64,000 bases of DNA from a virus. The notes beneath the pieces are model-generated. The model searched no databases. It was not told where the DNA came from and was given only the letters and a program-made list of their open reading frames with translations. The stretch is taken from the IMG/VR virus record IMGVR_UViG_3300046698_000540, positions 36,370-100,369 of that record; one strand, written 5' to 3'. Numbering within the stretch: position 1 is the first letter of the stretch; each line of letters begins with the position of its first letter. The position numbers and the translations under genes were made by a program. Of this stretch, positions 26,797-45,966 are shown piece by piece.

Positions 26797-27092
26797 ATGG
26801 ACCTCCCGTAGCCGGCGTGCCCGCCCGGCAACGCGGCATGGCCCAGAATGTTGAAGTCTTGACCGGACCGCTCTAAACTGGATTTGGCGCCTGTTCTGGC
26901 AAACTTCAACTGGGAATGCGTTTGCCTGTGCGGGCCGAACCGCGGTTCTGCGCCGGCCTTTTTCGCCTTAGCACTCCAGTTCTTTCCGTGGTGTGCCTTC
27001 AGCATTTTCTTGTGCTCTGGGGTGGCTCGACCTTGTGCATGAGCCTCTTCCGCTTCCGTTAAAAAATCCGCTGTTCTGGACATGGCCCTCAC
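26793..27092 (-). CDS. Basic protein with conserved C-terminal tag (copy 4)
   Basis: Ends RSGQDFNILGHAALPGGHAGYGRSM. Confidence 0.75.
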   Translation of the reverse strand: MRAMSRTADFLTEAEEAHAQGRATPEHKKMLKAHHGKNWSAKAKKAGAEPRFGPHRQTHSQLKFARTGAKSSLERSGQDFNILGHAALPGGHAGYGRSM

Positions 27093-28909
27093 AATCTATG
27101 AAACGGCATTTCACGATCCGACGCAAGTCCTCGCTGGTGGCGGCCCTTGCCGGGATTCAGGAAGAAGTTGTCGTGCTCCTCGATCTCCCTGTTCTCATCG
27201 GCAACAAAGTCGCACGCCAAACAGCCAAGCATCAAGCTGGAACAGAAGTCCTTATAGGAGGTCTCGTCCCCGGCCTCCACGGCCAAATAAGCGCCACGGT
27301 AGACCTTTTGCAGATTCGTCATCTGCGAGACGAAATTGCGCTGCTTCTGGCCCTTTCGGGCTCGTTCGCTGTTGGGGTATTCGAATCGTTCGTTCTGCAG
27401 GTCCGCTAGAAGGCGTGAGTAACCGTCGTGGTTGGTCGATTGGTCCGCAATGAACCGTATCAGCTCCAGCTCGTTCGCGGCAATTTGCGCCTGGAAATAA
27501 TTCTCCAGCATATCCGCCATTGCCTCGCCGACGCCCGTGGCGTCGATCATGATCCGCTTCAATCCCCGGTAGTTGACCAAGAAGTCCCGGATCTGGCTGA
27601 ACTGCGCGACATAATCGTCGCCAGTGATCTGCAGCCAGTTCAAAACCCGCTTGTGGCACCGGAAGTCTCCTTCGCCTACATAACCACCTTTAGTGTAGTC
27701 CGGTTGCACCACCGTTACAACCGTGGAGCTTTCCGCCTTCCCAACGTCGATTCCCACATAAATCACGTTCACCGGATCGTAGGTCACCGGCGAATAATTT
27801 TTCCCCATCAGGTCGAACAGAGTGGGCTCGACGAACATGCCCCTTTCGAGAATCCAGTGGAGGCGGTACGACAGCCTGAACTCGTCGGAGTCGTACCCCA
27901 ACTCGGCCATCTTTTTCTGGATGTGAATTCGATACCACTGGTTCGCTCTCGCGGCCACTTCAAAGTCGTACTGGAAATGCAGCTTGAGGGTCTGATCTTG
28001 CTGCTTGACGTCCTCCCGAACATTCTGCTGGCACTTGTCGTAGAAGGCGGACCTGGTCATATTGCAGGTCCCGATCTGTACGAAGCTGGCGGCCGTGGAG
28101 GCTGCCATGGGCACGATCGACTTGCGCCACACGTACGCGTTGATGTCCTGCGCCTCTTCTCCAATAATCAGGTGCCAGCTTGCGCCTTCGATCTTGGCCT
28201 GGAGGGCGGAGGAATGGCATTTGGCATACGACCCATTGGGCAATTCCGCTCTGGCGGAATCTTTTTTGTCGTCCATCTCGATCCCTATTTCGTCATCCGC
28301 CAGCACTTCATGGGCGTGCTCCGAATGCAGGTAGTGCAGGATCTTGTCGAACAACAGGCCTGACTGCTCGTGGGATGGGGCGTAAATTCCGACCCAAAAG
28401 CCATTCTTGAATTTCTGAATGCGGGGATCCGCGAACACGGGCGGCGAATTTTCCTTATCCGGATTCGTAGTGATCTGCGCCAGCAGGGGAAGCATTACCA
28501 TCATGCCGTCCACGATGACGGCCACCACAGTGGATTTCCCAGACTGGCGCGAAAACAGACCCGTGACATCTTCCGAATCCGACCGCAGCACCGAAAGAAT
28601 CACGCGCTGCCCAAATTCCCGCTGGTACGCGTGAAGCTGGATGTCAGCCATCATTTCGCTGAACGCCAGAATCGCTTTAGCCAGCTTCCGGAGCTGAACC
28701 TTGGACAGGTGCTTGATCTGCTGCTGGCGCAAGTCCTCGCCGGCAAGCGCATCTCTTACCTGGCCGGAAAGTTTTTCCTCGGAACGAAGGCCCGGCTTTT
28801 CATCGGTAACTACCGTACGGGCCTCCAGGGGTGAGCGTGTAAGCGATACGTCCAGCACACGTGCGGAAAATAGCCGAACACCACGCCGGCGTCCAACAAG
28901 GAAAGCCAC
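27089..28909 (-). CDS. terL: Terminase large subunit (start uncertain)
   Basis: Walker A SRQSGKS, Walker B IIGEEAQD, nuclease VGIDVGK and IDATGVG. Confidence 0.92.
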   Translation of the reverse strand: MAFLVGRRRGVRLFSARVLDVSLTRSPLEARTVVTDEKPGLRSEEKLSGQVRDALAGEDLRQQQIKHLSKVQLRKLAKAILAFSEMMADIQLHAYQREFGQRVILSVLRSDSEDVTGLFSRQSGKSTVVAVIVDGMMVMLPLLAQITTNPDKENSPPVFADPRIQKFKNGFWVGIYAPSHEQSGLLFDKILHYLHSEHAHEVLADDEIGIEMDDKKDSARAELPNGSYAKCHSSALQAKIEGASWHLIIGEEAQDINAYVWRKSIVPMAASTAASFVQIGTCNMTRSAFYDKCQQNVREDVKQQDQTLKLHFQYDFEVAARANQWYRIHIQKKMAELGYDSDEFRLSYRLHWILERGMFVEPTLFDLMGKNYSPVTYDPVNVIYVGIDVGKAESSTVVTVVQPDYTKGGYVGEGDFRCHKRVLNWLQITGDDYVAQFSQIRDFLVNYRGLKRIMIDATGVGEAMADMLENYFQAQIAANELELIRFIADQSTNHDGYSRLLADLQNERFEYPNSERARKGQKQRNFVSQMTNLQKVYRGAYLAVEAGDETSYKDFCSSLMLGCLACDFVADENREIEEHDNFFLNPGKGRHQRGLASDREMPFHRL

Positions 28910-36214: not shown

Positions 36215-36433
36215 TTAGGCCAGCTCCTCTTCGTTGCAGGCTTCATATGCGCCTGGAAGGGGAACGATCGGTTCCAGGCCTTTGGCAATTCTGATTGGGT
36301 TGAATCTGTTTACGCAATTCTCACAGATCGGCTCCCTCACGTCATTGACGCGAACCGAGGGAACCTTCATCGGGTTGAACGTGAACGGTTGGCCGCACCC
36401 GATGCACGGCGCCGTTCCCAAGGCGTACCCCAT
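36215..36433 (-). CDS. Small zinc-finger-like protein
   Basis: CIGC...CENC. Confidence 0.55.
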   Translation of the reverse strand: MGYALGTAPCIGCGQPFTFNPMKVPSVRVNDVREPICENCVNRFNPIRIAKGLEPIVPLPGAYEACNEEELA

Positions 36434-37895: not shown

Positions 37896-37926
37896 CTGTT
37901 TTGTCCCGGCCTTTCTCCGGGGGCTA

Positions 37927-37980
37927 TCGCCTACACGTCTCGTGTTTCGACTCGGAGCCTCCGAATCCTCTTCAGGGCGA
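37927..37980 (-). ncRNA. Type I hammerhead ribozyme A
   Basis: UCGCC CUGAAGA G GAUUCGG-AGGCU-CCGAGUC GAAA CACG-AGA-CGUG UA^GGCGA. Confidence 0.85.
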
Positions 37981-38016
37981 AAAATTCCTGGCCGGGGCAT
38001 GGCGTCCCCGGCCAGG
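37981..38016 (-). terminator. Terminator-like hairpin upstream of ribozyme A
   Basis: 11-bp stem CCUGGCCGGGG/CCCCGGCCAGG then AAUUUUU. Confidence 0.55.
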
Positions 38017-38042
38017 CGGCGAAAGCTCACGCGTGCAGCCAA

Positions 38043-38930
38043 CTACGCCGCGGACGTGGGAGCGGAGGGAAACAAACTCTGTTGCTGTTTGGCGGGTTTG
38101 GGAGCATTCGGAATCGCCTTCCGGGATACTACCGCCTTGCGGTTCTCCTCAAAATCAGAGAGCTCGCCGGGTGTCGGCTTGCGCACCATCGCCAGCCGGC
38201 ATTTGTAAGTGCTGTCCGTGTATTCTCCGCTGTTGCTCCGGATCAGCTCCACAGTCTCCACGGCATACGCCGGATCCTCGCCCTCCTCCAGGTAGTCGGG
38301 ATTATAGGTCACCACTTTGAAGTGGCCGTCCTTCCCGATCTCCTGGACTTGCGCGAGAACCACACCGGGCGCCCAATCCCCGTCCCCCGTAACTTTGGGG
38401 TACACGAGCGCGGCCACGTCGCCTACCTTGAGGGCGGCTTTGTCCGGCGAACGCTGCGCCGAACTGGACCGGATGCCTTCGAGAGCATCCCGCTGCTCCT
38501 TATTGGGCCGTTTCACTATCACTACGCGCTCATCGTTGGCATCGATGATCTCAGTGCTGACCCCCCGGCCATTTTCGCGCCGCTTGGTCAACCTCTCCGC
38601 CACTTTCAAAGAGCCTGCACGGGGCGGTTTGTTCGGGAACAGGAACTTGATTGACGCATCGGCGCCGTCCTGAGAAACGGTCACCACTTCCGCGCCATAC
38701 ACGCCGGGAATGCGCCCCGGCTCCATCGCGTACGCGACCGTAATCAGATCGCCCGCCCGTAGCCCTTTCAGCGTTGCCAGCGCCGGCAGAGTATCTGGTG
38801 GCGGAGTGGAATCCGTCGCCACGGGAACCACCTTGGGCGGCTCCTTTTTCTTGATTACCTTCTTCCCTTCCAGAGCGCCCACCAGTTTTGTGGCGAACTC
38901 CCCTTCCGGTTTTTTCTTTGCCATGTTCAT
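38043..38930 (-). CDS. Hypothetical protein
   Basis: Start MNMAKKK after GGAAAGGA hairpin. Confidence 0.65.
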   Translation of the reverse strand: MNMAKKKPEGEFATKLVGALEGKKVIKKKEPPKVVPVATDSTPPPDTLPALATLKGLRAGDLITVAYAMEPGRIPGVYGAEVVTVSQDGADASIKFLFPNKPPRAGSLKVAERLTKRRENGRGVSTEIIDANDERVVIVKRPNKEQRDALEGIRSSSAQRSPDKAALKVGDVAALVYPKVTGDGDWAPGVVLAQVQEIGKDGHFKVVTYNPDYLEEGEDPAYAVETVELIRSNSGEYTDSTYKCRLAMVRKPTPGELSDFEENRKAVVSRKAIPNAPKPAKQQQSLFPSAPTSAA

Positions 38931-38966
38931 CAGGGGTCCTTTCCACCCCAGACTGCTGCCTTCGAA

Positions 38967-39054
38967 TCGCAGCCGTCTCTTGGGCGCGCTCGACGTGTTC
39001 CTCGCCGAGAGACTTTCGTCCGGGATGGGTCCCGCGCCCAAGACGCGGCTGCGA
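38967..39054 (-). ncRNA. Unknown multi-stem structured RNA element
   Basis: Long closing stem UCGCAGCCG..UCUUGGGCGCG / CGCGCCCAAGA..CGGCUGCGA enclosing three hairpins, one with a GAAA tetraloop. Confidence 0.55.
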
Positions 39055-39071
39055 ACCGCGCCACTACCTGC

Positions 39072-39341
39072 CTATTCCGGGCGATTCATCAGCGATCGCA
39101 GCTTGTCTGCAATCCGCCCGAACAGGTTCTTTTGTTTCCGTTGCTGCCGCTCGACCTGTTGTTGAAACCAGGGCGGCCTGTGTAGAACCGAAGTCACCTT
39201 CACTTCCTTCGGCCCTTTCTTTGTGGGGACTTCCACCGTCGCCGTGCTACGACCGGCGCCGCGGTGATGAACGGGCGCTGCCGCCCCCGCTCCCAAATTG
39301 TATCTGTTGTCTTTTCCAATCGCGAAAAAATGATGCGCCAT
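39072..39341 (-). CDS. Small basic protein
   Basis: Start MAHHFF after GAGGAGG. Confidence 0.55.
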   Translation of the reverse strand: MAHHFFAIGKDNRYNLGAGAAAPVHHRGAGRSTATVEVPTKKGPKEVKVTSVLHRPPWFQQQVERQQRKQKNLFGRIADKLRSLMNRPE

Positions 39342-40072
39342 TACACCTCCTCGAATAACCCTGCCTGACCTCCCCACGGCGCAACCTGCCGCTGTGTGGG
39401 CCTTCCTTCGTTGTAACCTCCGATTCGAGCCTTGCGCAGCCTCTCGTATTCCTCGGCTTCCTCCCGGACCCCGAGCCGGATCGCTATGCCCGATCTCTCG
39501 TTGTCCGTATCCCACCAGCCGCCAAGGCCGTCCCTTGCCATCAACACGTCTTCCGGCTCCGCCTCTTCATACTCAAAGCGGATCTTCAGCACGTTCTGCT
39601 CCGGAATTTCCAAGACCCGGCCGATATATTCGCCGGCATCATCACCTGGCCAAGGATACATGGCCACAACGATGTCTCCGAACGTGAATGGCCCTTCCTT
39701 CCGGACCGGGAAGCACTCGCGGAGGCACATAGGGCAGTAACCCTTCCCCGCGAAATACTCCAGCACCTTGACGAACCAAGGCTTTCCGCAGATATCGCAC
39801 TCTGCCGATACCTGGTTGACTTGGACAGGCGGCAACTCAATGACGGGAACCTCACCGTTCAGGTGCTGTTCCGTTCTGAGCCACAATCTCTGCCCGTGGC
39901 CGATCCCGACGCCCACGCCGTGCTCCTTAAAATGCCCCAGGCACATATTCCGCCAAGGGCCGGCCTTTGTGATGCCGTCGTACCGCGCCAACAGCCGCTG
40001 GTCGCGGTCCTTCTTGTGCTTGCAAAAATCGCAAGGGGGAAGTTTCTCTACTGTTCTTTCTTCACCGTGCAT
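39341..40072 (-). CDS. Zinc-finger domain protein
   Basis: CDFC...GPWRNMCLGHF...GVGIGHGQ, second CDIC..CPMC. Confidence 0.65.
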   Translation of the reverse strand: MHGEERTVEKLPPCDFCKHKKDRDQRLLARYDGITKAGPWRNMCLGHFKEHGVGVGIGHGQRLWLRTEQHLNGEVPVIELPPVQVNQVSAECDICGKPWFVKVLEYFAGKGYCPMCLRECFPVRKEGPFTFGDIVVAMYPWPGDDAGEYIGRVLEIPEQNVLKIRFEYEEAEPEDVLMARDGLGGWWDTDNERSGIAIRLGVREEAEEYERLRKARIGGYNEGRPTQRQVAPWGGQAGLFEEV

Positions 40073-40230
40073 GGTGGTACCTCCTCCAAGGCGACCCGAC
40101 TACGCCGCCAGATAATGCAGGAATACCCTGTCGAAAGGGCCGTATCTTTGGCGGCTTTTCTGTTTGAATACGGACCATACAACCGATCCGTTCCTTTCAC
40201 TTCCACCTCATACTCAATAGAATTGGCCAT
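40048..40230 (-). CDS. Small hypothetical protein
   Basis: Likely start MANSIEY. Confidence 0.5.
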   Translation of the reverse strand: MANSIEYEVEVKGTDRLYGPYSNRKAAKDTALSTGYSCIIWRRSRVALEEVPPCTVKKEQ

Positions 40231-40237
40231 GCCGCCC

Positions 40238-40420
40238 CTACTTTCTTCTCTTCGCCAGGCGCTGGCACTTCCCACAGGTTACCCGCTTCGGGTCCGACGT
40301 GGAAGGAAGCCTGGACTTATCTGTATCCAACAGCTCAGCCTTTGCGTAGCACGCCGGAAAGCGCATGCCTGCATTGATAAACAACCTTTGGTCCTGCAAA
40401 TGAATTTTTGCCATGTTCAC
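40238..40420 (-). CDS. Small hypothetical protein
   Basis: Follows RBS hairpin of ribozyme C. Confidence 0.6.
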   Translation of the reverse strand: MNMAKIHLQDQRLFINAGMRFPACYAKAELLDTDKSRLPSTSDPKRVTCGKCQRLAKRRK

Positions 40421-40441
40421 CGCGTCCTTTCTCCGCGAGGC

Positions 40442-40506
40442 TTTCGCCTACCTCCCTGTGCGGGAGGTTTCGAGCCGGCGCCCACCGGCCCATCTTCAGG
40501 ACGAAA
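40442..40506 (-). ncRNA. Type I hammerhead ribozyme C
   Basis: UUUCGUC CUGAAGA UG GGCCGG-UGGGCG-CCGGCU C GAAA CCUCCC-GCACA-GGGAGG UA^GGCGAAA. Confidence 0.88.
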
Positions 40507-40834
40507 TTTCCGCTCTTGTGTCTCCCAAGATCGTGATTGAGCTGTGGGTTTCCTTCCATGCAACCGCAGCCACATGAAAGCTCTTCAGCCTATCGATCTG
40601 TTGCGTGACCCAGAACGCTTGCGTTTCCAATCCTACTTGCATATACATGGTCAGCAGGATATGCGTTCCTTTCAACACCATCCCCCGATCCGCGAACCTG
40701 CCTTCTACCGCCATGGGGGGCCGCCCGGTGTGCATGATGCTGTAAACACTCACGACCCCGGCGTACCGCAAATACTCGGTCACCACGGCGCCCGGATCGG
40801 GCACCAGCATGGTGATAGCCACTCTTGTTGCCAT
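40496..40834 (-). CDS. Hypothetical protein
   Basis: Between ribozymes D and C; stop codon lies in the CUGA core of C. Confidence 0.6.
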   Translation of the reverse strand: MATRVAITMLVPDPGAVVTEYLRYAGVVSVYSIMHTGRPPMAVEGRFADRGMVLKGTHILLTMYMQVGLETQAFWVTQQIDRLKSFHVAAVAWKETHSSITILGDTRAEISS

Positions 40835-40862
40835 TTTTCAAAGGCTCCTTTCCAGCCTAGCT

Positions 40863-40929
40863 TTCGCCTATGGCGGGCCTCCCGGCCGGCCATTTCGACC
40901 TGGAGCCACCAGGTTCTCTTCGGGGCGAA
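40863..40929 (-). ncRNA. Type I hammerhead ribozyme D (CCGAAGA core)
   Basis: UUCGCC CCGAAGA GA ACCUGG-UGGCU-CCAGGU CGAAA UGGC..GCCA UA^GGCGAA. Confidence 0.8.
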
Positions 40930-41274
40930 CTACTCCGTTTCTTCCCATGGCTTTTCGCCGGGCTCCTGGTACAGGGCCAGGCCACAAGAATTATGCAAAG
41001 CTTCCCACAACCGGTCGCCGCGGGCCAGCAACTCCTCCTTGGGTTGCAACTTCTTGTGATTCCCAACAAAGCCTTGTTCCTCGGGAGTCGTTTGATCCAT
41101 TGCATCTCCTGCCTGTTCCAGCAGCTCCGCCATGTAGGTTTGCGCGTCATCCCATTCTGCGAGAGACCGGGCCGCCATCATCACCAATGACAGGCGCGCG
41201 ATCGATCTAGCCCAGGTTCTCAGCTTTACAAGCGTGATTTGGGCATTCGTCAATTCTGTTGGTATTGTTGCCAT
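40930..41274 (-). CDS. Hypothetical protein
   Basis: Between ribozymes E and D. Confidence 0.65.
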   Translation of the reverse strand: MATIPTELTNAQITLVKLRTWARSIARLSLVMMAARSLAEWDDAQTYMAELLEQAGDAMDQTTPEEQGFVGNHKKLQPKEELLARGDRLWEALHNSCGLALYQEPGEKPWEETE

Positions 41275-41300
41275 TTCAAAGCTCCTTTCCAGCTTGGCTT

Positions 41301-41359
41301 TCGCCTACCGGCTGTAGAGGCCGGTTTCATCCGGGCGCCGCCCGAACTCTTCAGGACGA
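41301..41359 (-). ncRNA. Type I hammerhead ribozyme E
   Basis: UCGUC CUGAAGA G UUCGGG-CGGCG-CCCGGA U GAAA CCGGC-CUCUACA-GCCGG UA^GGCGA. Confidence 0.88.
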
Positions 41360-41827
41360 TTACAAGGTGTCCGCAGCGTTTCCTTCAGGATCATCTCCAG
41401 CGAAAAACGCTCTCTGGCCCTCCAGTTTCGCCAGAGTCTTCCGCTGTTCCTCCACTTCGATCCCAACACCCTGCTTGCCGTACAGCCAAGCAATCACCAG
41501 TTCCAACGATGCGTCCTCGTAACACATCTCCTGGTGGTTCACCGGCACGGCATAGAACCTGCTGGCCCCCACTTTGTACACCATGCCGATCCCCTGCTCG
41601 CCTGGATGTAGACGCACCTCGTAGCAGGGCGCCAGTAGCAGGTTTATGCCGTGATACCTGGCGGGGATTGCCAACAGGCGATTTTGCATCTGCTTTTCCG
41701 CCCGTGCCAGTTCCTCGGATTCCAACTGCGCTTCGTTTCGTTTTGCCATTGCTTTCTCACTCCTGTCCAAATATGCCAGCAGATCGGTCCGATTCCGTTC
41801 GCAATGATCTTCAAATTCGACCATCAT
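41360..41827 (-). CDS. Hypothetical protein
   Basis: Between ribozymes F and E. Confidence 0.65.
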   Translation of the reverse strand: MMVEFEDHCERNRTDLLAYLDRSEKAMAKRNEAQLESEELARAEKQMQNRLLAIPARYHGINLLLAPCYEVRLHPGEQGIGMVYKVGASRFYAVPVNHQEMCYEDASLELVIAWLYGKQGVGIEVEEQRKTLAKLEGQRAFFAGDDPEGNAADTL

Positions 41828-41858
41828 AATCTTTTAGCCGGTCCTTTCCACCGGAGCT

Positions 41859-41918
41859 TTCGCCGACCGCCTTGTCTGGCGGTTTCGTCCCTGCGCTACA
41901 GGAACTCATCGGGGCGAA
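41859..41918 (-). ncRNA. Type I hammerhead ribozyme F (CCGAUGA core)
   Basis: UUCGCC CCGAUGA G UUCCUG-UAGCG-CAGGGA C GAAA CCGCC-AGACAA-GGCGG UC^GGCGAA. Confidence 0.82.
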
Positions 41919-42109
41919 TTTCTTTCCTCTTCATTTTCCCGGAGAGCCTTGTCGAATTCACTATTGCGTTTAGCTCTCTCGGAGGTAGCTTCTCGCCAAA
42001 CATGCCTGTCAGTTTGCGAGGCATTTGGATGCTCAAGACTATCCAGGATTGCAAACGCAATAACGAAGACAAAAAGCCCAAGCCAGCAGAGTTTCATTTC
42101 ACGTTTCAT
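41906..42109 (-). CDS. Small membrane-anchored protein
   Basis: MKREMKLCWLGLFVFVIAFAIL; stop codon lies in the core of ribozyme F. Confidence 0.6.
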   Translation of the reverse strand: MKREMKLCWLGLFVFVIAFAILDSLEHPNASQTDRHVWREATSERAKRNSEFDKALRENEEERNSPR

Positions 42110-42132
42110 AAGAGCTCCTTTCAAGCCCAGCT

Positions 42133-42194
42133 TTCGCCTATCCCCCTGAGCGGGGGATTTCGGCCGGAAGCCATCCGGCCATCATCGGGGCGAA
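42133..42194 (-). ncRNA. Type I hammerhead ribozyme G (CCGAUGA core)
   Basis: UUCGCC CCGAUGA U GGCCGGA-UGGCU-UCCGGCC GAAA UCCCCC-GCUCA-GGGGGA UA^GGCGAA. Confidence 0.82.
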
Positions 42195-42581
42195 CTACCA
42201 TTCCAGGTTGTTGAGCGCCGCCAGTACCATAACCTCGACCGGGGTCAACGCCACCACAAAGACGTCCACCACGATAGCGCCCTGGAGCGCTTCGTGATGC
42301 TGGCCGCCGATCGCGTGTTCCTTCAGCGGTTCCACCAGATCCTCCAGGCGGATTTTTTCCTGGACGGGAAGACGATTCCTGGTATCCTTCACCAGCGCCT
42401 GACCCGTGCCCAATCCCAATCGGCAGCCCAGGCCGTCGAAATGCACCTGGCACAGGTTTGCCCAGCACATGCCGCCCCATCCGGGGAGCTTCGCGCTGTA
42501 CAACGCCGGCGTCTGTTGATCCTCCGCCCTGCACACATCGCAGTCCGGACGCTCTCTCACCATCACTTTATTGTTTGCCAT
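42195..42581 (-). CDS. Zinc-finger domain protein
   Basis: CDVC...WANLCQVHF...LGLGTGQ, same domain as 39341..40072. Confidence 0.65.
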   Translation of the reverse strand: MANNKVMVRERPDCDVCRAEDQQTPALYSAKLPGWGGMCWANLCQVHFDGLGCRLGLGTGQALVKDTRNRLPVQEKIRLEDLVEPLKEHAIGGQHHEALQGAIVVDVFVVALTPVEVMVLAALNNLEW

Positions 42582-42614
42582 GTTCGTTTGATTCGGCTCC
42601 TTTCCAGCCGGGCT

Positions 42615-42681
42615 TTCGCCTATGCCCCCTACTTCTTGGGGGCATTTCGCTTCCGCGCCACGGAAGCCTCTTCAGGGCGAA
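42615..42681 (-). ncRNA. Type I hammerhead ribozyme H
   Basis: UUCGCC CUGAAGA G GCUUCCG-UGGCG-CGGAAGC GAAA UGCCCCC-8nt-GGGGGCA UA^GGCGAA. Confidence 0.9.
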
Positions 42682-42778
42682 GATTCTCTCTGCGCGCCCA
42701 AAAAAATCCGGCCACGCAGGAGCACTACCTGGGCACCACACCGGCATGTGGCCGATGTCCCGCATACGCAGGGCCGGA

Positions 42779-43009
42779 TCATGCCGCGTTCTCGAAATGG
42801 AACCGCTCGCTGCGGCTGTAGCCCGGCCGCGGATTCCTGACCGTCCACGAGCCGTCCGCCTTCTCGCGCAACATCGTGCGCAGCTTCGAAGGCCCTGACT
42901 GAACCCCAATGCTCAGGGCCCCGGTCGTAGTGGCGAAGGTGTTGAACTCCACTCCCATCGCGCGCAACATGTTCCGCAGAATTCTGTTCTGTCTCTGTAG
43001 TCTTTTCAT
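42779..43009 (-). CDS. Hypothetical protein
   Basis: Between ribozymes I and H. Confidence 0.6.
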   Translation of the reverse strand: MKRLQRQNRILRNMLRAMGVEFNTFATTTGALSIGVQSGPSKLRTMLREKADGSWTVRNPRPGYSRSERFHFENAA

Positions 43010-43043
43010 ATTCGTGTTTGTCTCATCCTTTCCATGAGGGCTT

Positions 43044-43111
43044 TCGCCTAACGGCCCGCCTCCTTTTCGGGCCGTTTTCGGGGAGTTGCCGACTCCCCAT
43101 CTTCAGGGCGA
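43044..43111 (-). ncRNA. Type I hammerhead ribozyme I
   Basis: UCGCC CUGAAGA U GGGGAGU-CGGCA-ACUCCCC GAAA ACGGCCCG-9nt-CGGGCCGU UA^GGCGA. Confidence 0.88.
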
Positions 43112-43891
43112 TTACGCGGCGGCCGACTGCTTCTCCGTGGCCGCTTCCCACTTCGCGTACACTTCCTCCCACGCGGCGTCCGCGCCAATTTCCTTGGCCT
43201 TCACCCGCGCTTCCTCCACCAGCTTCACGTGCGCCGGTTTCATCGACGACTTCCAGGTCGCCTCCGCCTTCTTCCGATCGCCCGCGGCCGCCAGCAACCC
43301 TTCCAGGTCCTTGGCGCCGTAGAACTCGATCGCGCCGTTGCCCAGCGGATCCGTGCACTCGACCGCGATCGGCGTCTTCTTCGCCGTCGTGCGCAGCCCA
43401 ACCACCGTGAACTCGTACGGGTACTGGGGATCCAGGTCGTCGTCCGGGTCGGGCACGTGATACTTACGCCCGAGCCATTCCGGATTCACACCCTCGAAGT
43501 CCTTCGCCCGCTCGATCCACAGCGTCTGCATCGAGGGAACCGGCGCGCCGGCTTCGTTCCGGTACACCAGGTCCACGGCCACATACGGCGCCGTAACCGC
43601 GAAGTCCTCGACCGCCACCTGACGGCTGCCGAGCGCCTGCTCCACGATCTTCTCGAAGTCTCCGTCCGCGATTCCCAGGTCCACCGAGAACCCAAGACTC
43701 ACGTACCCGGAGTCCGTCGCGTCGTCCGATTCCTCGACCTTCACCGAGACTTTCGCCCGCGCTACCAGAGTTTCCAGTTTTGCGAGGATCTCGGATCGAA
43801 TGGCGGCCGTCGTCGCTTCGTCGAACTTCACCGGCACGAATTGCGATTTTTCCGCGACTGCAACTGCTTCTTTTCTGTTCTTGTTTGCCAT
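43112..43891 (-). CDS. Hypothetical acidic protein
   Basis: 259 aa between ribozymes J and I; strongly G/C-ending codons. Confidence 0.7.
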   Translation of the reverse strand: MANKNRKEAVAVAEKSQFVPVKFDEATTAAIRSEILAKLETLVARAKVSVKVEESDDATDSGYVSLGFSVDLGIADGDFEKIVEQALGSRQVAVEDFAVTAPYVAVDLVYRNEAGAPVPSMQTLWIERAKDFEGVNPEWLGRKYHVPDPDDDLDPQYPYEFTVVGLRTTAKKTPIAVECTDPLGNGAIEFYGAKDLEGLLAAAGDRKKAEATWKSSMKPAHVKLVEEARVKAKEIGADAAWEEVYAKWEAATEKQSAAA

Positions 43892-43924
43892 AACGTTTGT
43901 AAACCCGTCCTTTCCACGGGGGCT

Positions 43925-43981
43925 TTCGCCGACGCCTCACGGCGTTTCGACCTGGCGCCACCAGGCCTTCATCGGGGCGAA
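43925..43981 (-). ncRNA. Type I hammerhead ribozyme J (CCGAUGA core)
   Basis: UUCGCC CCGAUGA A GGCCUGG-UGGCG-CCAGGUC GAAA CGCC-GUGA-GGCG UC^GGCGAA. Confidence 0.82.
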
Positions 43982-44383
43982 CTACTCTACGCTTGTGTGA
44001 ATCCGGTTGCACCGGCAGCCTGGGGAATCGCAGAACTCGCTTTCCGCGTCCGCTTCGCTCACCAGGTCCTTGAACTGAAGCGGCTCCGATTCCAGATCCT
44101 CGTCGTACACCGAGGCCACCTGGGCCATGGACGTTCTTGCATCCTCGGCCGCGCCTGGCAGCGAGTCGTACCCTGCGTCGGTCAGTTCGTTGATCCTGGT
44201 TTCGATCAACCCGTTTGGCCCCACCGGATCCATTTCTTCGGAAGTGCATCCCGTTTCCGGATCCGTCTCTTCGCGCAAAAAGTCCGCGGCCAAGACCTCA
44301 TCCTGCATTGCCTCCCGGCAGTCCTCGCAGGGCTCTTCCAAATGCTGGCAATCTTCGCAACGAACTACTATTCCTTTTGCCAT
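43982..44383 (-). CDS. Acidic Cys-motif protein
   Basis: Start MAKGIV; CEDC..CEDC and C-terminal Cys cluster; between ribozymes K and J. Confidence 0.65.
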   Translation of the reverse strand: MAKGIVVRCEDCQHLEEPCEDCREAMQDEVLAADFLREETDPETGCTSEEMDPVGPNGLIETRINELTDAGYDSLPGAAEDARTSMAQVASVYDEDLESEPLQFKDLVSEADAESEFCDSPGCRCNRIHTSVE

Positions 44384-44414
44384 ATCGTTCAACCAGGTCC
44401 TTTCCACCTGAGCT

Positions 44415-44480
44415 TTCGCCTATTCATGCCGTCTGGACATAAATTTCGGCCGGGCGCTGCCCAGCCATCTTCAGGACGAA
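44415..44480 (-). ncRNA. Type I hammerhead ribozyme K
   Basis: UUCGUC CUGAAGA U GGCUGGG-CAGCG-CCCGGCC GAAA UUUAUGUC-CAGAC-GGCAUGAA UA^GGCGAA. Confidence 0.88.
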
Positions 44481-45038
44481 TTGTATTTTCCCACCACACT
44501 TCCCGCGGGGTTATGAGGCCCGCGGGTTCGCTTTGAATTCGACTCTCCAGTTTGCTTCCCAGTCCGAACGTTGCCCAAGTTGGGCGCCCCCGTCAGGGGA
44601 CCGTGTTACACCAGGCCAATTCGCCGCATCGTAAATCCCAGGGGCAAGCTCGTTCTGCCCAAAAATGTCACGACGATCTTCGCCGGGGACGTTTGCGGGG
44701 ACATGGTGATTCGACCGGGTAGCGAATGTCATCTGAGAAAGGAAAGGTATTAAAATGACATCCGTCGCCGGAGCCGTTTTCCGTATTCAATTGTCAAATA
44801 TCGCTTGGGTGCCTTCCCCGATCGGGAGCGGTTGGAGGGATTGTGCTGTGGCGGGAGTGGCCAGGGCTTTTGAGTCGTCGCGGCTTTTCACCAGCACCGA
44901 AATGCTGTGCACCTTGATAGGTAACGCCGAAACTTCCACCTCACCGAAGTGAGGACCGTTTCTGCCACCCGGTAGCACCGCCCCCGAAAGGGTCGGCCCC
45001 GGTTTGGTTCCCCCTTGTGAGGGGAGGGGTATGATTTA

Positions 45039-45067
45039 AGTATAGTATATCGTTGGGTATTTGTAAA
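45039..45067 (-). promoter_or_regulatory. Strong sigma70-like early promoter
   Basis: TTTACA-17 bp-TATACT; near-identical copy at 49759..49787. Confidence 0.85.
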
Positions 45068-45081
45068 GGGGTGTAAGTGTA

Positions 45082-45132
45082 TGAAAACAAAGGAGATGTT
45101 ATTATTGGTTGTAACCTATTGAAAACAAAGGA
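45082..45132. repeat. 13-bp direct repeat TGAAAACAAAGGA x2 upstream of the promoter
   Basis: Copies at 45082..45094 and 45120..45132 in an AT-rich patch. Confidence 0.7.
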
Positions 45133-45966
45133 AATATAGTTGTGGTTGGGGGGTATTGATTAAATTGATGGTGGAAGGGTGTTTTGGGGTCTCTCGCTTA
45201 TCCCTGCCTTTTTTGAATCCATGCTTTCCTTCGTGGCACGCTCACGTGTGAGTGTCTCCTGTCCATACCATTCCCATGCCGGCTCTTAATGCGGGGGGTG
45301 TGATTCCCACCATAGACCCACCTGAGGAAGCCCAAATAAAAGTCCGCGGCCGGGCGCACCCATCCGGCCTGCCGAATCGTAGCGAGCCTAACGCGCGCTG
45401 AGCCTACGCATTGCTTTTCTATACGCGGCGGGGGCTTGATGCATGGCCAGGGCGTAGGGGGTGTGATAGGACGCCTGAGGAGCAAAGACAGAGGGGTAGG
45501 ACAGGGCTTAGCAGGGGAAGAAGGGGCAGCGTGGCATATGGGAAGCGGGCTGACGATAGGGGATATGCGGGGGGGTACTGGGTAGAGGGGGTATAACAAG
45601 CATCTCAAGGGAGAACACAGGAAGGGAAGGAAAGGCTTTCCAGGCGGCATTTTTTCAGGGGATCTGGTATACAGAGGGCCTGTCGGGGGAGGGGGGAACA
45701 AAGGGCTCTTGGGCGCGGATTTTTTCGAGGAGAAAAAGGCCCTTTACGAAACACTTCCCCTCGGGGGTTGTGGTGGGGGTCTTGGTGGGGTCTTGGTACG
45801 GTAGGGGCTATCGGAGCACTTTGGGGAAAGCTGGTAGGTTACCCTTCTCCTTCAGGCGGCCTTTTTTCGGGGGGTCTCCAGGCACTGGAGTGTTCTTCGC
45901 AAAGGAGGCCGATCGGGAGGGCCTAAGTACCATATTGCTGGCGCCGGCCAACCGAAGCTGGCCAAT

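Follow-up and report, generated by a model that had tools for sequence, protein, structure and literature searches.

The locus described here raises the question of why a phage would place self-cleaving ribozymes between the genes of an early operon. It is located in a 64,000-nt stretch of DNA, referred to as the window (positions 36,370 to 100,369 of the IMG/VR virus record IMGVR_UViG_3300046698_000540, which comprises 100,369 bp and is estimated to be 80% complete). On the minus strand of the window, genes for an SPP1-type portal, capsid proteins and glycosyltransferases are found, and the source is an uncultivated tailed phage, whose portal is no more than 34% identical to its counterpart in any cultured phage. 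Ten type I hammerhead ribozymes reside on the minus strand of its early leftward operon between positions 37922 and 44480, a density of ten copies within 6.6 kb; nine cleavage sites follow each other from 44420 down to 40448, the tenth is found at 37931, and eight of the units hold one gene each. The positions 40448 and 44420, between which an earlier note on this DNA had placed gene-sized units flanked by ribozymes, coincide exactly with the bases that directly follow the cleavage sites of the copies HH1 and HH9. The most likely role of the ribozymes is to cut the early operon transcript co-transcriptionally, releasing linear mRNAs of one gene each, the ends of which are structured and standardised. 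The purpose of phage ribozyme arrays has been an open question since 2011, for which this locus provides a clean and dense test case.

The array is recovered by an exact pattern consisting of the core, GAAA and GGCGAAAG, which gave five matches compared to none expected in shuffles. With C permitted at core position 4 the pattern yielded nine copies, and the tenth (HH0, 37922-37981) has the tail GGCGAUAGCC. A covariance model derived from the ten copies returned exactly ten matches in the whole 100-kb record, with E-values of 1e-16 to 1e-20 and no copy outside 37922-44480. In addition, a syntenic relative, G001 (IMGVR_UViG_3300041809_001829, 27.7 kb), which shares 65-80% nucleotide identity with the window in the flanks, possesses six hammerheads of the same kind.

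Read from 5' to 3', all copies follow a common order: the stop codon, the stem I arm (U/A)UCGYC, the core C[U/C]GANGA, the stem II hairpin (7-8 bp, often with one additional base after A9), GAAA, and the stem III hairpin (4-8 bp), followed by U, H17, the cleavage site, GGCGA(A/U)AGCY, a leader hairpin and ATG, the latter 29-39 nt from the cleavage site. Stem I comprises 5-7 bp, and H17 is A in eight copies and C in two. The leader hairpin consists of a covarying 5-bp stem closed by the loop GGAAAGG or a close variant. The conserved hammerhead core (C3 U4 G5 A6 N7 G8 A9, G12 A13 A14, A15.1-U16.1, H17 not G) is complete in six of the ten copies, and the remaining four have C at position 4 (U4C) in an otherwise intact core. 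Unaided, RNAalifold recovered the three-stem hammerhead from the ten copies, with compensatory changes at 12 pairs. Stems II and III display many double changes, and stem I is paired in all copies with an almost invariant sequence. The tertiary contact between stems I and II is also present, as the RGC of loop II pairs with the GCY of the tail in a 3-bp pseudoknot.

These features extend to a family alignment of 61 hits (49 distinct sequences) from this phage, G001 and about 30 other phage contigs, in which 92% of the cells are paired compared to 28-43% in slid controls, and the observed covariation values were reached in none of 500 shuffles. The variable pair of the pseudoknot is GC in 31 sequences, GU in 9, AU in 7 and of another kind in 1, and all seven AGC loops go together with a U tail. 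U4C cores occur in four of the six copies of G001 and in 12 of the 49 sequences family-wide. The other phage contigs were recovered by a stem I-anchored search pattern, and hence part of the near-invariance of stem I in alignment A2 reflects ascertainment; the unbiased sample consists only of the 16 copies of the window and G001.

Based on the conserved core and the covariation, each ribozyme would be expected to fold during transcription, which probably starts at a promoter-like site near 45050, and to cut after H17. The products would be linear mRNAs, mostly of one gene each. The upstream piece would end in the compact ribozyme, with a 2',3'-cyclic phosphate as its 3' terminus, and the downstream piece would start with 5'-OH-GGCGAAAGCY, which is predicted to snap into a GNRA-type mini-hairpin abutting the 5-bp hairpin. 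This second hairpin may expose its purine-rich GGAAAGG loop, which is similar to a ribosome-binding site (RBS), 7-16 nt 5' of the AUG. The ends of each gene would thus be independent of its neighbours, structured and probably nuclease-resistant.

The predicted folds of the released leader are consistent with such a role. The 5'-terminal GGC(GAAA)GCY mini-hairpin (bases 1-10) with the abutting leader hairpin is predicted for 15 of the 16 copies of the window and the relative, and the probability of the terminal G1:Y10 pair amounts to 0.79-1.00 in 14 of the 16. The mini-hairpin takes up the bases that are needed by stem I and the pseudoknot and would therefore favour product release and a fully paired mRNA 5' end. 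The ten leader bases would accordingly take part in three pairings, a possible reason why stem I, in contrast to stems II and III, does not covary in this lineage. In one family variant, GGCGGAAGCC, both the stem I pairing (by a compensating U-to-C change) and the GNRA loop are kept. About 30 other phage contigs carry the same ribozyme, which is followed there after 20-40 nt by an RBS and ATG. For three such arrays, efficient cleavage was reported at every ribozyme (Perreault et al. 2011, PMC3088659), and the authors of that study proposed processing into single-gene mRNAs, a proposal which was repeated in a 2019 review.

Several points weigh against processing into linear mRNAs. Cleavage, end chemistry and the stability of the products are all inferred. 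At the gathering threshold, none of the Rfam 15 hammerhead models (RF00163, RF00008, RF02276, RF03152 and others) detected a copy; in E-value mode, the best match was RAGATH-1-hammerhead with 23.6 bits compared to a threshold of 56.3, and for one copy only. The copies belong to a subfamily missed by Rfam 15. In about half of the copies, the GGAAAGG loop is separated from the AUG by 14-16 nt, which is long for a Shine-Dalgarno sequence. In folds of whole units, pairing between the two ends is approximately equal in energy to the leader mini-hairpin, so that thermodynamics alone would be compatible with re-association of the ends. Finally, U4C occurs in four of the ten cores and was described to lower activity in vitro, so that some sites may cut slowly.

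The latter point and the Rfam scores might also be taken to indicate that the copies are inactive relics or a hammerhead-like structured intergenic repeat. This appears extremely improbable, as the other core positions are invariant, the three stems and the pseudoknot are kept by compensatory changes among 49 distinct sequences, and the position relative to stop codon and ATG is constant. U4C, a natural variant known to be tolerated, was described to have considerably lower activity in vitro, yet to be active enough for a viroid in vivo (Perreault et al. 2011, PMC3088659). The U4C members of the family belong to several lineages and have 92% of their cells paired, equal to the U4 copies, which suggests that they are still under selection. 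As a refinement of the processing into linear mRNAs, it might be speculated that the U4C cores cut slower than the U4 cores, that the affected junctions persist uncut for a longer time, and that neighbouring genes thereby obtain different amounts or timing; a suggestion that slower phage variants may be regulated has been made before (PMC3088659). Tertiary contacts may, however, fully compensate for U4C, and the U4C copies show no obvious pattern by gene type or position, so that we regard graded processing as rather unlikely.

A different fate of the units was suggested in the earlier note, namely that each early gene might exist as a circular mRNA. In such a scenario, the 5'-OH GGCGAAAGCY of a doubly cleaved unit would pair with loop II and the stem I arm of its 3'-terminal ribozyme; reversal of the hammerhead reaction or an RtcB-type ligase of the host would then close the nick, resulting in exonuclease-resistant circles. 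The structural premise is correct: owing to identical stem I arms, the two ends are able to rebuild a hammerhead, and the 5' GGCGAA is complementary to the arm of the unit's own 3' ribozyme in all eight units (UUCGYC in six, AUCGYC with 5 bp in two). When the units were folded whole as naked RNA, four of the eight had the end pairing in their minimum-energy structure. The probability of this pairing spans 0.11 to 0.94, and in units whose best structure lacks it, the energy penalty for forming it does not exceed 1.4 kcal/mol. In addition, every unit tail is compatible with loop II of the downstream ribozyme without an A-C clash, and a single stem I sequence is shared by all ten copies and the six of the relative while stems II and III covary freely. 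Circles do arise from tandem hammerheads in retrozymes and viroid-like RNAs (PMC5680766, PMC7761336). The complementarity of the ends, though, follows from the one stem I common to all copies and is not evidence of circles.

A number of findings argue against circular messages. An identical stem I and tail occurs as a single copy, and hence without a second cut, in seven 100%-complete phage genomes, indicating that this stem I sequence needs no partner ribozyme; as these genomes were found by the stem I-anchored pattern, they are uninformative on the variability of stem I across the family. In 15 of 16 copies, G1-C3 together with the GCY tail would be tied up in the predicted mini-hairpin. The stop codons lie against stem I in five units and within the core in two; a terminating ribosome, the footprint size of which is well established, would accordingly unwind both elements. 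The units do not appear to be rod-like, with circular-fold z-scores of -0.3 to -4.9 and 61-66% of bases paired, and much of this pairing stems from the ribozyme and leader hairpins. For short-stem hammerheads, the internal equilibrium favours cleavage. A search of the 80%-complete phage record for RtcB (PF01139) was negative, and a host enzyme could still provide the activity. Perreault et al. 2011 (PMC3088659) had raised circular or spliced products for such arrays and detected neither (their data not shown). Taken together, the idea that each early gene exists as a circular mRNA is unsupported, and we regard it as very unlikely. The same holds true for the broader notion that stem I and the tail are uniform in order to let any ribozyme body dock any processed 5' end, the ends then being joined by the reverse hammerhead reaction or a host RtcB to yield circular or re-joined (spliced or shuffled) messages early in infection, which we also consider very unlikely. 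Circles, if they did occur, would constitute the first case of circular mRNAs made by ribozymes in a DNA phage, a case that present evidence makes unlikely. In another phage lineage (L137 1204-4045; L148; L165; L026), a three-copy array of this subfamily was observed in which stem I varies from copy to copy (UCCGCC/GGCGGA vs CUCGCC/GGCGAA); thus, a uniform stem I per array is not universal.

The repeated module might also act at the level of DNA, in addition to and not in place of its function in RNA. Here, the module of about 100 nt (ribozyme and leader) would be a recombination site for gain, loss, duplication and movement of single genes, an exchange of cassettes that had likewise been put forward in the earlier note. 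The comparison with G001 is in line with this in that gene content is not fixed between relatives. The homologous stretch comprises nine modules and nine genes in the window compared to five modules and six genes in G001; the modules are kept, the intervening genes are mostly different, and the two sequences are too diverged for breakpoints to be located. The only shared genes are u7/G_c1 (41% identity) and, weakly, u8/G_b (31% over 55 aa), while no counterpart exists for seven genes of the window and three of G001; conserved proteins of the two phages are 53-60% identical. Reciprocal best module matches occur at matching positions for W8/Gb and W1/Ge. The same relation holds for W9 and Gd (62%), although their ranks in the order differ and the proteins that follow them are unrelated; u9 and G_d were considered as homologues and rejected, since the module and the first codons are common and the proteins are unrelated. 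A 32-nt exact run is common to W8 (3' part and leader) and Gb, which adjoin genes with almost no similarity, and the N-terminal domain of u6 is paralogous to that of a downstream gene. This pattern resembles the gene shuffling in T4-type phages, which is bounded by promoter/stem-loop (PeSL) motifs (PMC2839356, PMC4122927). In contrast, exact identity between modules within the genome is at most 17 nt (median 11 nt), which is short for homologous recombination. Moreover, the comparison relies on one diverged relative, and ordinary fast turnover of ORFans together with purifying selection on the ribozymes would look alike; near-identical contigs of another family member keep identical ribozyme spacing. 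The cassette idea is thus supported in part, by the kept modules and the differing genes between them, whereas the short identity and the single relative speak against it, and we regard it as plausible but less likely than not.

Processing into linear mRNAs remains the preferred interpretation. The features of the array, including the promoter candidate and the terminator-like elements, are listed in Table 1.

Table 1. Features of the ribozyme array and its flanks in 5' to 3' order of the minus strand. HH, hammerhead; aa, amino acids.
Feature	Coordinates	Strand	Remarks
Sigma-70-like promoter candidate	45039-45067	-	TTTACA-17-TATACT; about 560 nt upstream of HH9
HH9 module	44384-44480	-	Hammerhead 44411-44480; core CUGAAGA; loop II AGC; cut before G44420; leader to ATG at 44383
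u9, 133-aa ORFan	43982-44383	-	Stop TAG directly against HH8 stem I; no Pfam/PHROG match
HH8 module	43892-43981	-	Core CCGAUGA (U4C); cut before G43930
u8, 259-aa ORFan	43112-43891	-	Weak similarity to same-position 250-aa gene of relative
HH7 module	43010-43112	-	Core CUGAAGA; stem I just 5 bp (AUCGCC); cut before G43048
u7, 76 aa	42779-43009	-	41% identity to G_c1 of relative
GC-rich inverted repeats, then seven-U run	42700-42779	-	Just 5' of HH6; terminator-like, non-canonical; consensus scan negative
HH6 module	42582-42681	-	Core CUGAAGA; cut before G42620
u6, 128 aa	42195-42581	-	N-terminal Cys-rich domain matches phrog_23287
HH5 module	42110-42194	-	Core CCGAUGA (U4C); cut before G42138
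u5, 67 aa	41906-42109	-	Hydrophobic N-terminus; stop is UGA within HH4 core CCGAUGA
HH4 module	41828-41918	-	Core CCGAUGA (U4C); loop II AGC pairs tail AGCU; cut before G41864
u4, 155-aa ORFan	41360-41827	-	Metagenome homologues 70-95% identical
HH3 module	41275-41360	-	Core CUGAAGA; stem I 5 bp (AUCGUC); cut before G41305
u3, 114-aa ORFan	40930-41274	-	Open reading frame; no Pfam/PHROG match
HH2 module	40835-40929	-	Core CCGAAGA (U4C); cut before G40868
u2, 112 aa	40496-40834	-	Stop is UGA of HH1 core CUGAAGA
HH1 module	40415-40505	-	Core CUGAAGA; cut before G40448
u1, 58 aa	40238-40414	-	Followed by 243-aa gene and 332-aa gene without ribozyme between
243-aa gene	39341-40072	-	Conserved in relative
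332-aa gene	38043-39041	-	Conserved in relative
Intrinsic-terminator-like hairpin	37980-38016	-	Hairpin 38016-37987; 11 bp, 10 G-C, then AAUUUUU
HH0 module, tenth hammerhead	37896-37981	-	Core CUGAAGA; tail GGCGAUAGCC; cut before G37931; beyond the span of the earlier note

At the downstream end of the array, the U run of the terminator-like element (37980-38016) continues as the 5' strand of HH0 stem I. U runs likewise precede two other ribozymes, namely the sixth in G001 and HH6, the U7 element of the latter being less canonical. With a terminator U-tract located directly before a ribozyme, transcripts that read through would be cut right after the terminator. At the upstream end, the promoter candidate falls within a block that is 94% identical to G001, and the RNA leader 3' of the candidate is not folded in excess (z = 0.03). 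Two non-coding blocks on the minus strand, 44730-44797 and 45024-45071, were observed to be 83% and 94% identical, respectively, to the relative (L017 1363-1701), well above their surroundings. Upstream of the promoter candidate, a C-rich stretch of about 0.9 kb (45100-45960, minus strand) contains no convincing open reading frame (ORF), and the GC skew switches sign there.

The nine cassette proteins had no Pfam match, and a PHROG match was obtained for u6 only, with no function assigned there. The N-terminal region of u6 of about 70 aa (42366-42587; PDCDxC...WANxCxxHF, phrog_23287) is paralogous to the N-terminus of the 243-aa gene and to G_e1 (L017 4930-5715); the N-terminus shared by u6 and the 243-aa gene seems to have arisen by duplication of a domain inside the early region. 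A metagenome protein, P0001, is 95% identical to u4 and has an additional Cys-rich, zinc-ribbon-like insertion of 26 aa (CPSC...CEVC) near its C-terminus; thus, a very close relative of the phage is present in the ENA data. Most cassette genes start with ATGGCAA, encoding Met-Ala-Lys/Asn/Thr/Arg (u9, u8, u6, u3, u2 and u1 as well as G_a to G_e2 of the relative), and the conserved module therefore seems to reach into the first codons.

A genome scan revealed six true family members, in metagenome-assembled genomes (MAGs) of Treponema, Spirochaetia and Dehalococcoidia and at one further locus, none of them close. The copies on the MAG contigs L311, L330, L335, L364 and L336 (Treponema, Spirochaetia, Dehalococcoidia) belong to the same subfamily, with the tail GGCGAAAGC and GGC in loop II, and some MAG copies from these groups have a different conserved leader hairpin. 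A scan of viral contigs with the tail and the hairpin loop returned 16 loci, all of which except G001 were rejected. Chance matches only were obtained with a looser core pattern (among the matches listed), and none of the 119 matches from a pattern scan of metagenomes was a hammerhead, all being attributable to chance. No further viral relatives were identified when u8, the 243-aa gene and an alignment of u4 served as protein queries, and a search with a 606-aa ORF (27089-28909, no Pfam match) identified only a 7-kb fragment. The tail motif was not found in the supplements of PMC3088659.

Among known systems, a close likeness exists to the arrays of Perreault et al. 2011 (PMC3088659), in which several hammerheads per operon are likewise located between varying genes, stems I and II are in contact through a pseudoknot, and core variants are tolerated. 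While such arrays have thus been known since 2011, the array described here is denser and differs by its four U4C copies among ten, the leader switch predicted from the GNRA mini-hairpin and the purine-loop hairpin, the fusion of a terminator to a ribozyme, and its membership of a subfamily missed by Rfam 15; these are the fresher aspects of the locus. With retrozymes and viroid-like RNAs (PMC5680766, PMC7761336) it has in common that two hammerheads on the same strand excise a unit, the 5'-OH and 2',3'-cyclic phosphate ends of which rebuild the ribozyme. Those RNAs are, however, non-coding or replicating and highly self-paired, and their circles have been observed, whereas the units described here contain ordinary translated ORFs, do not appear to be rod-like and belong to a double-stranded DNA phage. 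Similar to PeSL cassettes (PMC2839356, PMC4122927), a repeated regulatory motif brackets small ORFans in a hypervariable early region, and relatives differ by whole genes. PeSLs are DNA or transcription signals with longer identity, in contrast to the repeat in this phage, which is a ribozyme with diverged stems and exact matches of at most 17 nt.

In engineered insulators of the RiboJ type, which are derived from a satellite RNA ribozyme, a hammerhead removes the upstream context, and a hairpin after the cut organises the 5' untranslated region before the RBS. By analogy, the array may be regarded as a natural counterpart of such ribozyme insulators; unlike RiboJ, it occurs naturally, precedes every gene as a repeat and is built of type I ribozymes with a pseudoknot. 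If processing into single-gene mRNAs holds true, the module would constitute a natural plug-and-play expression cassette that provides each acquired gene with defined 5' and 3' ends, and would be of interest for both phage gene regulation and the design of synthetic insulators.

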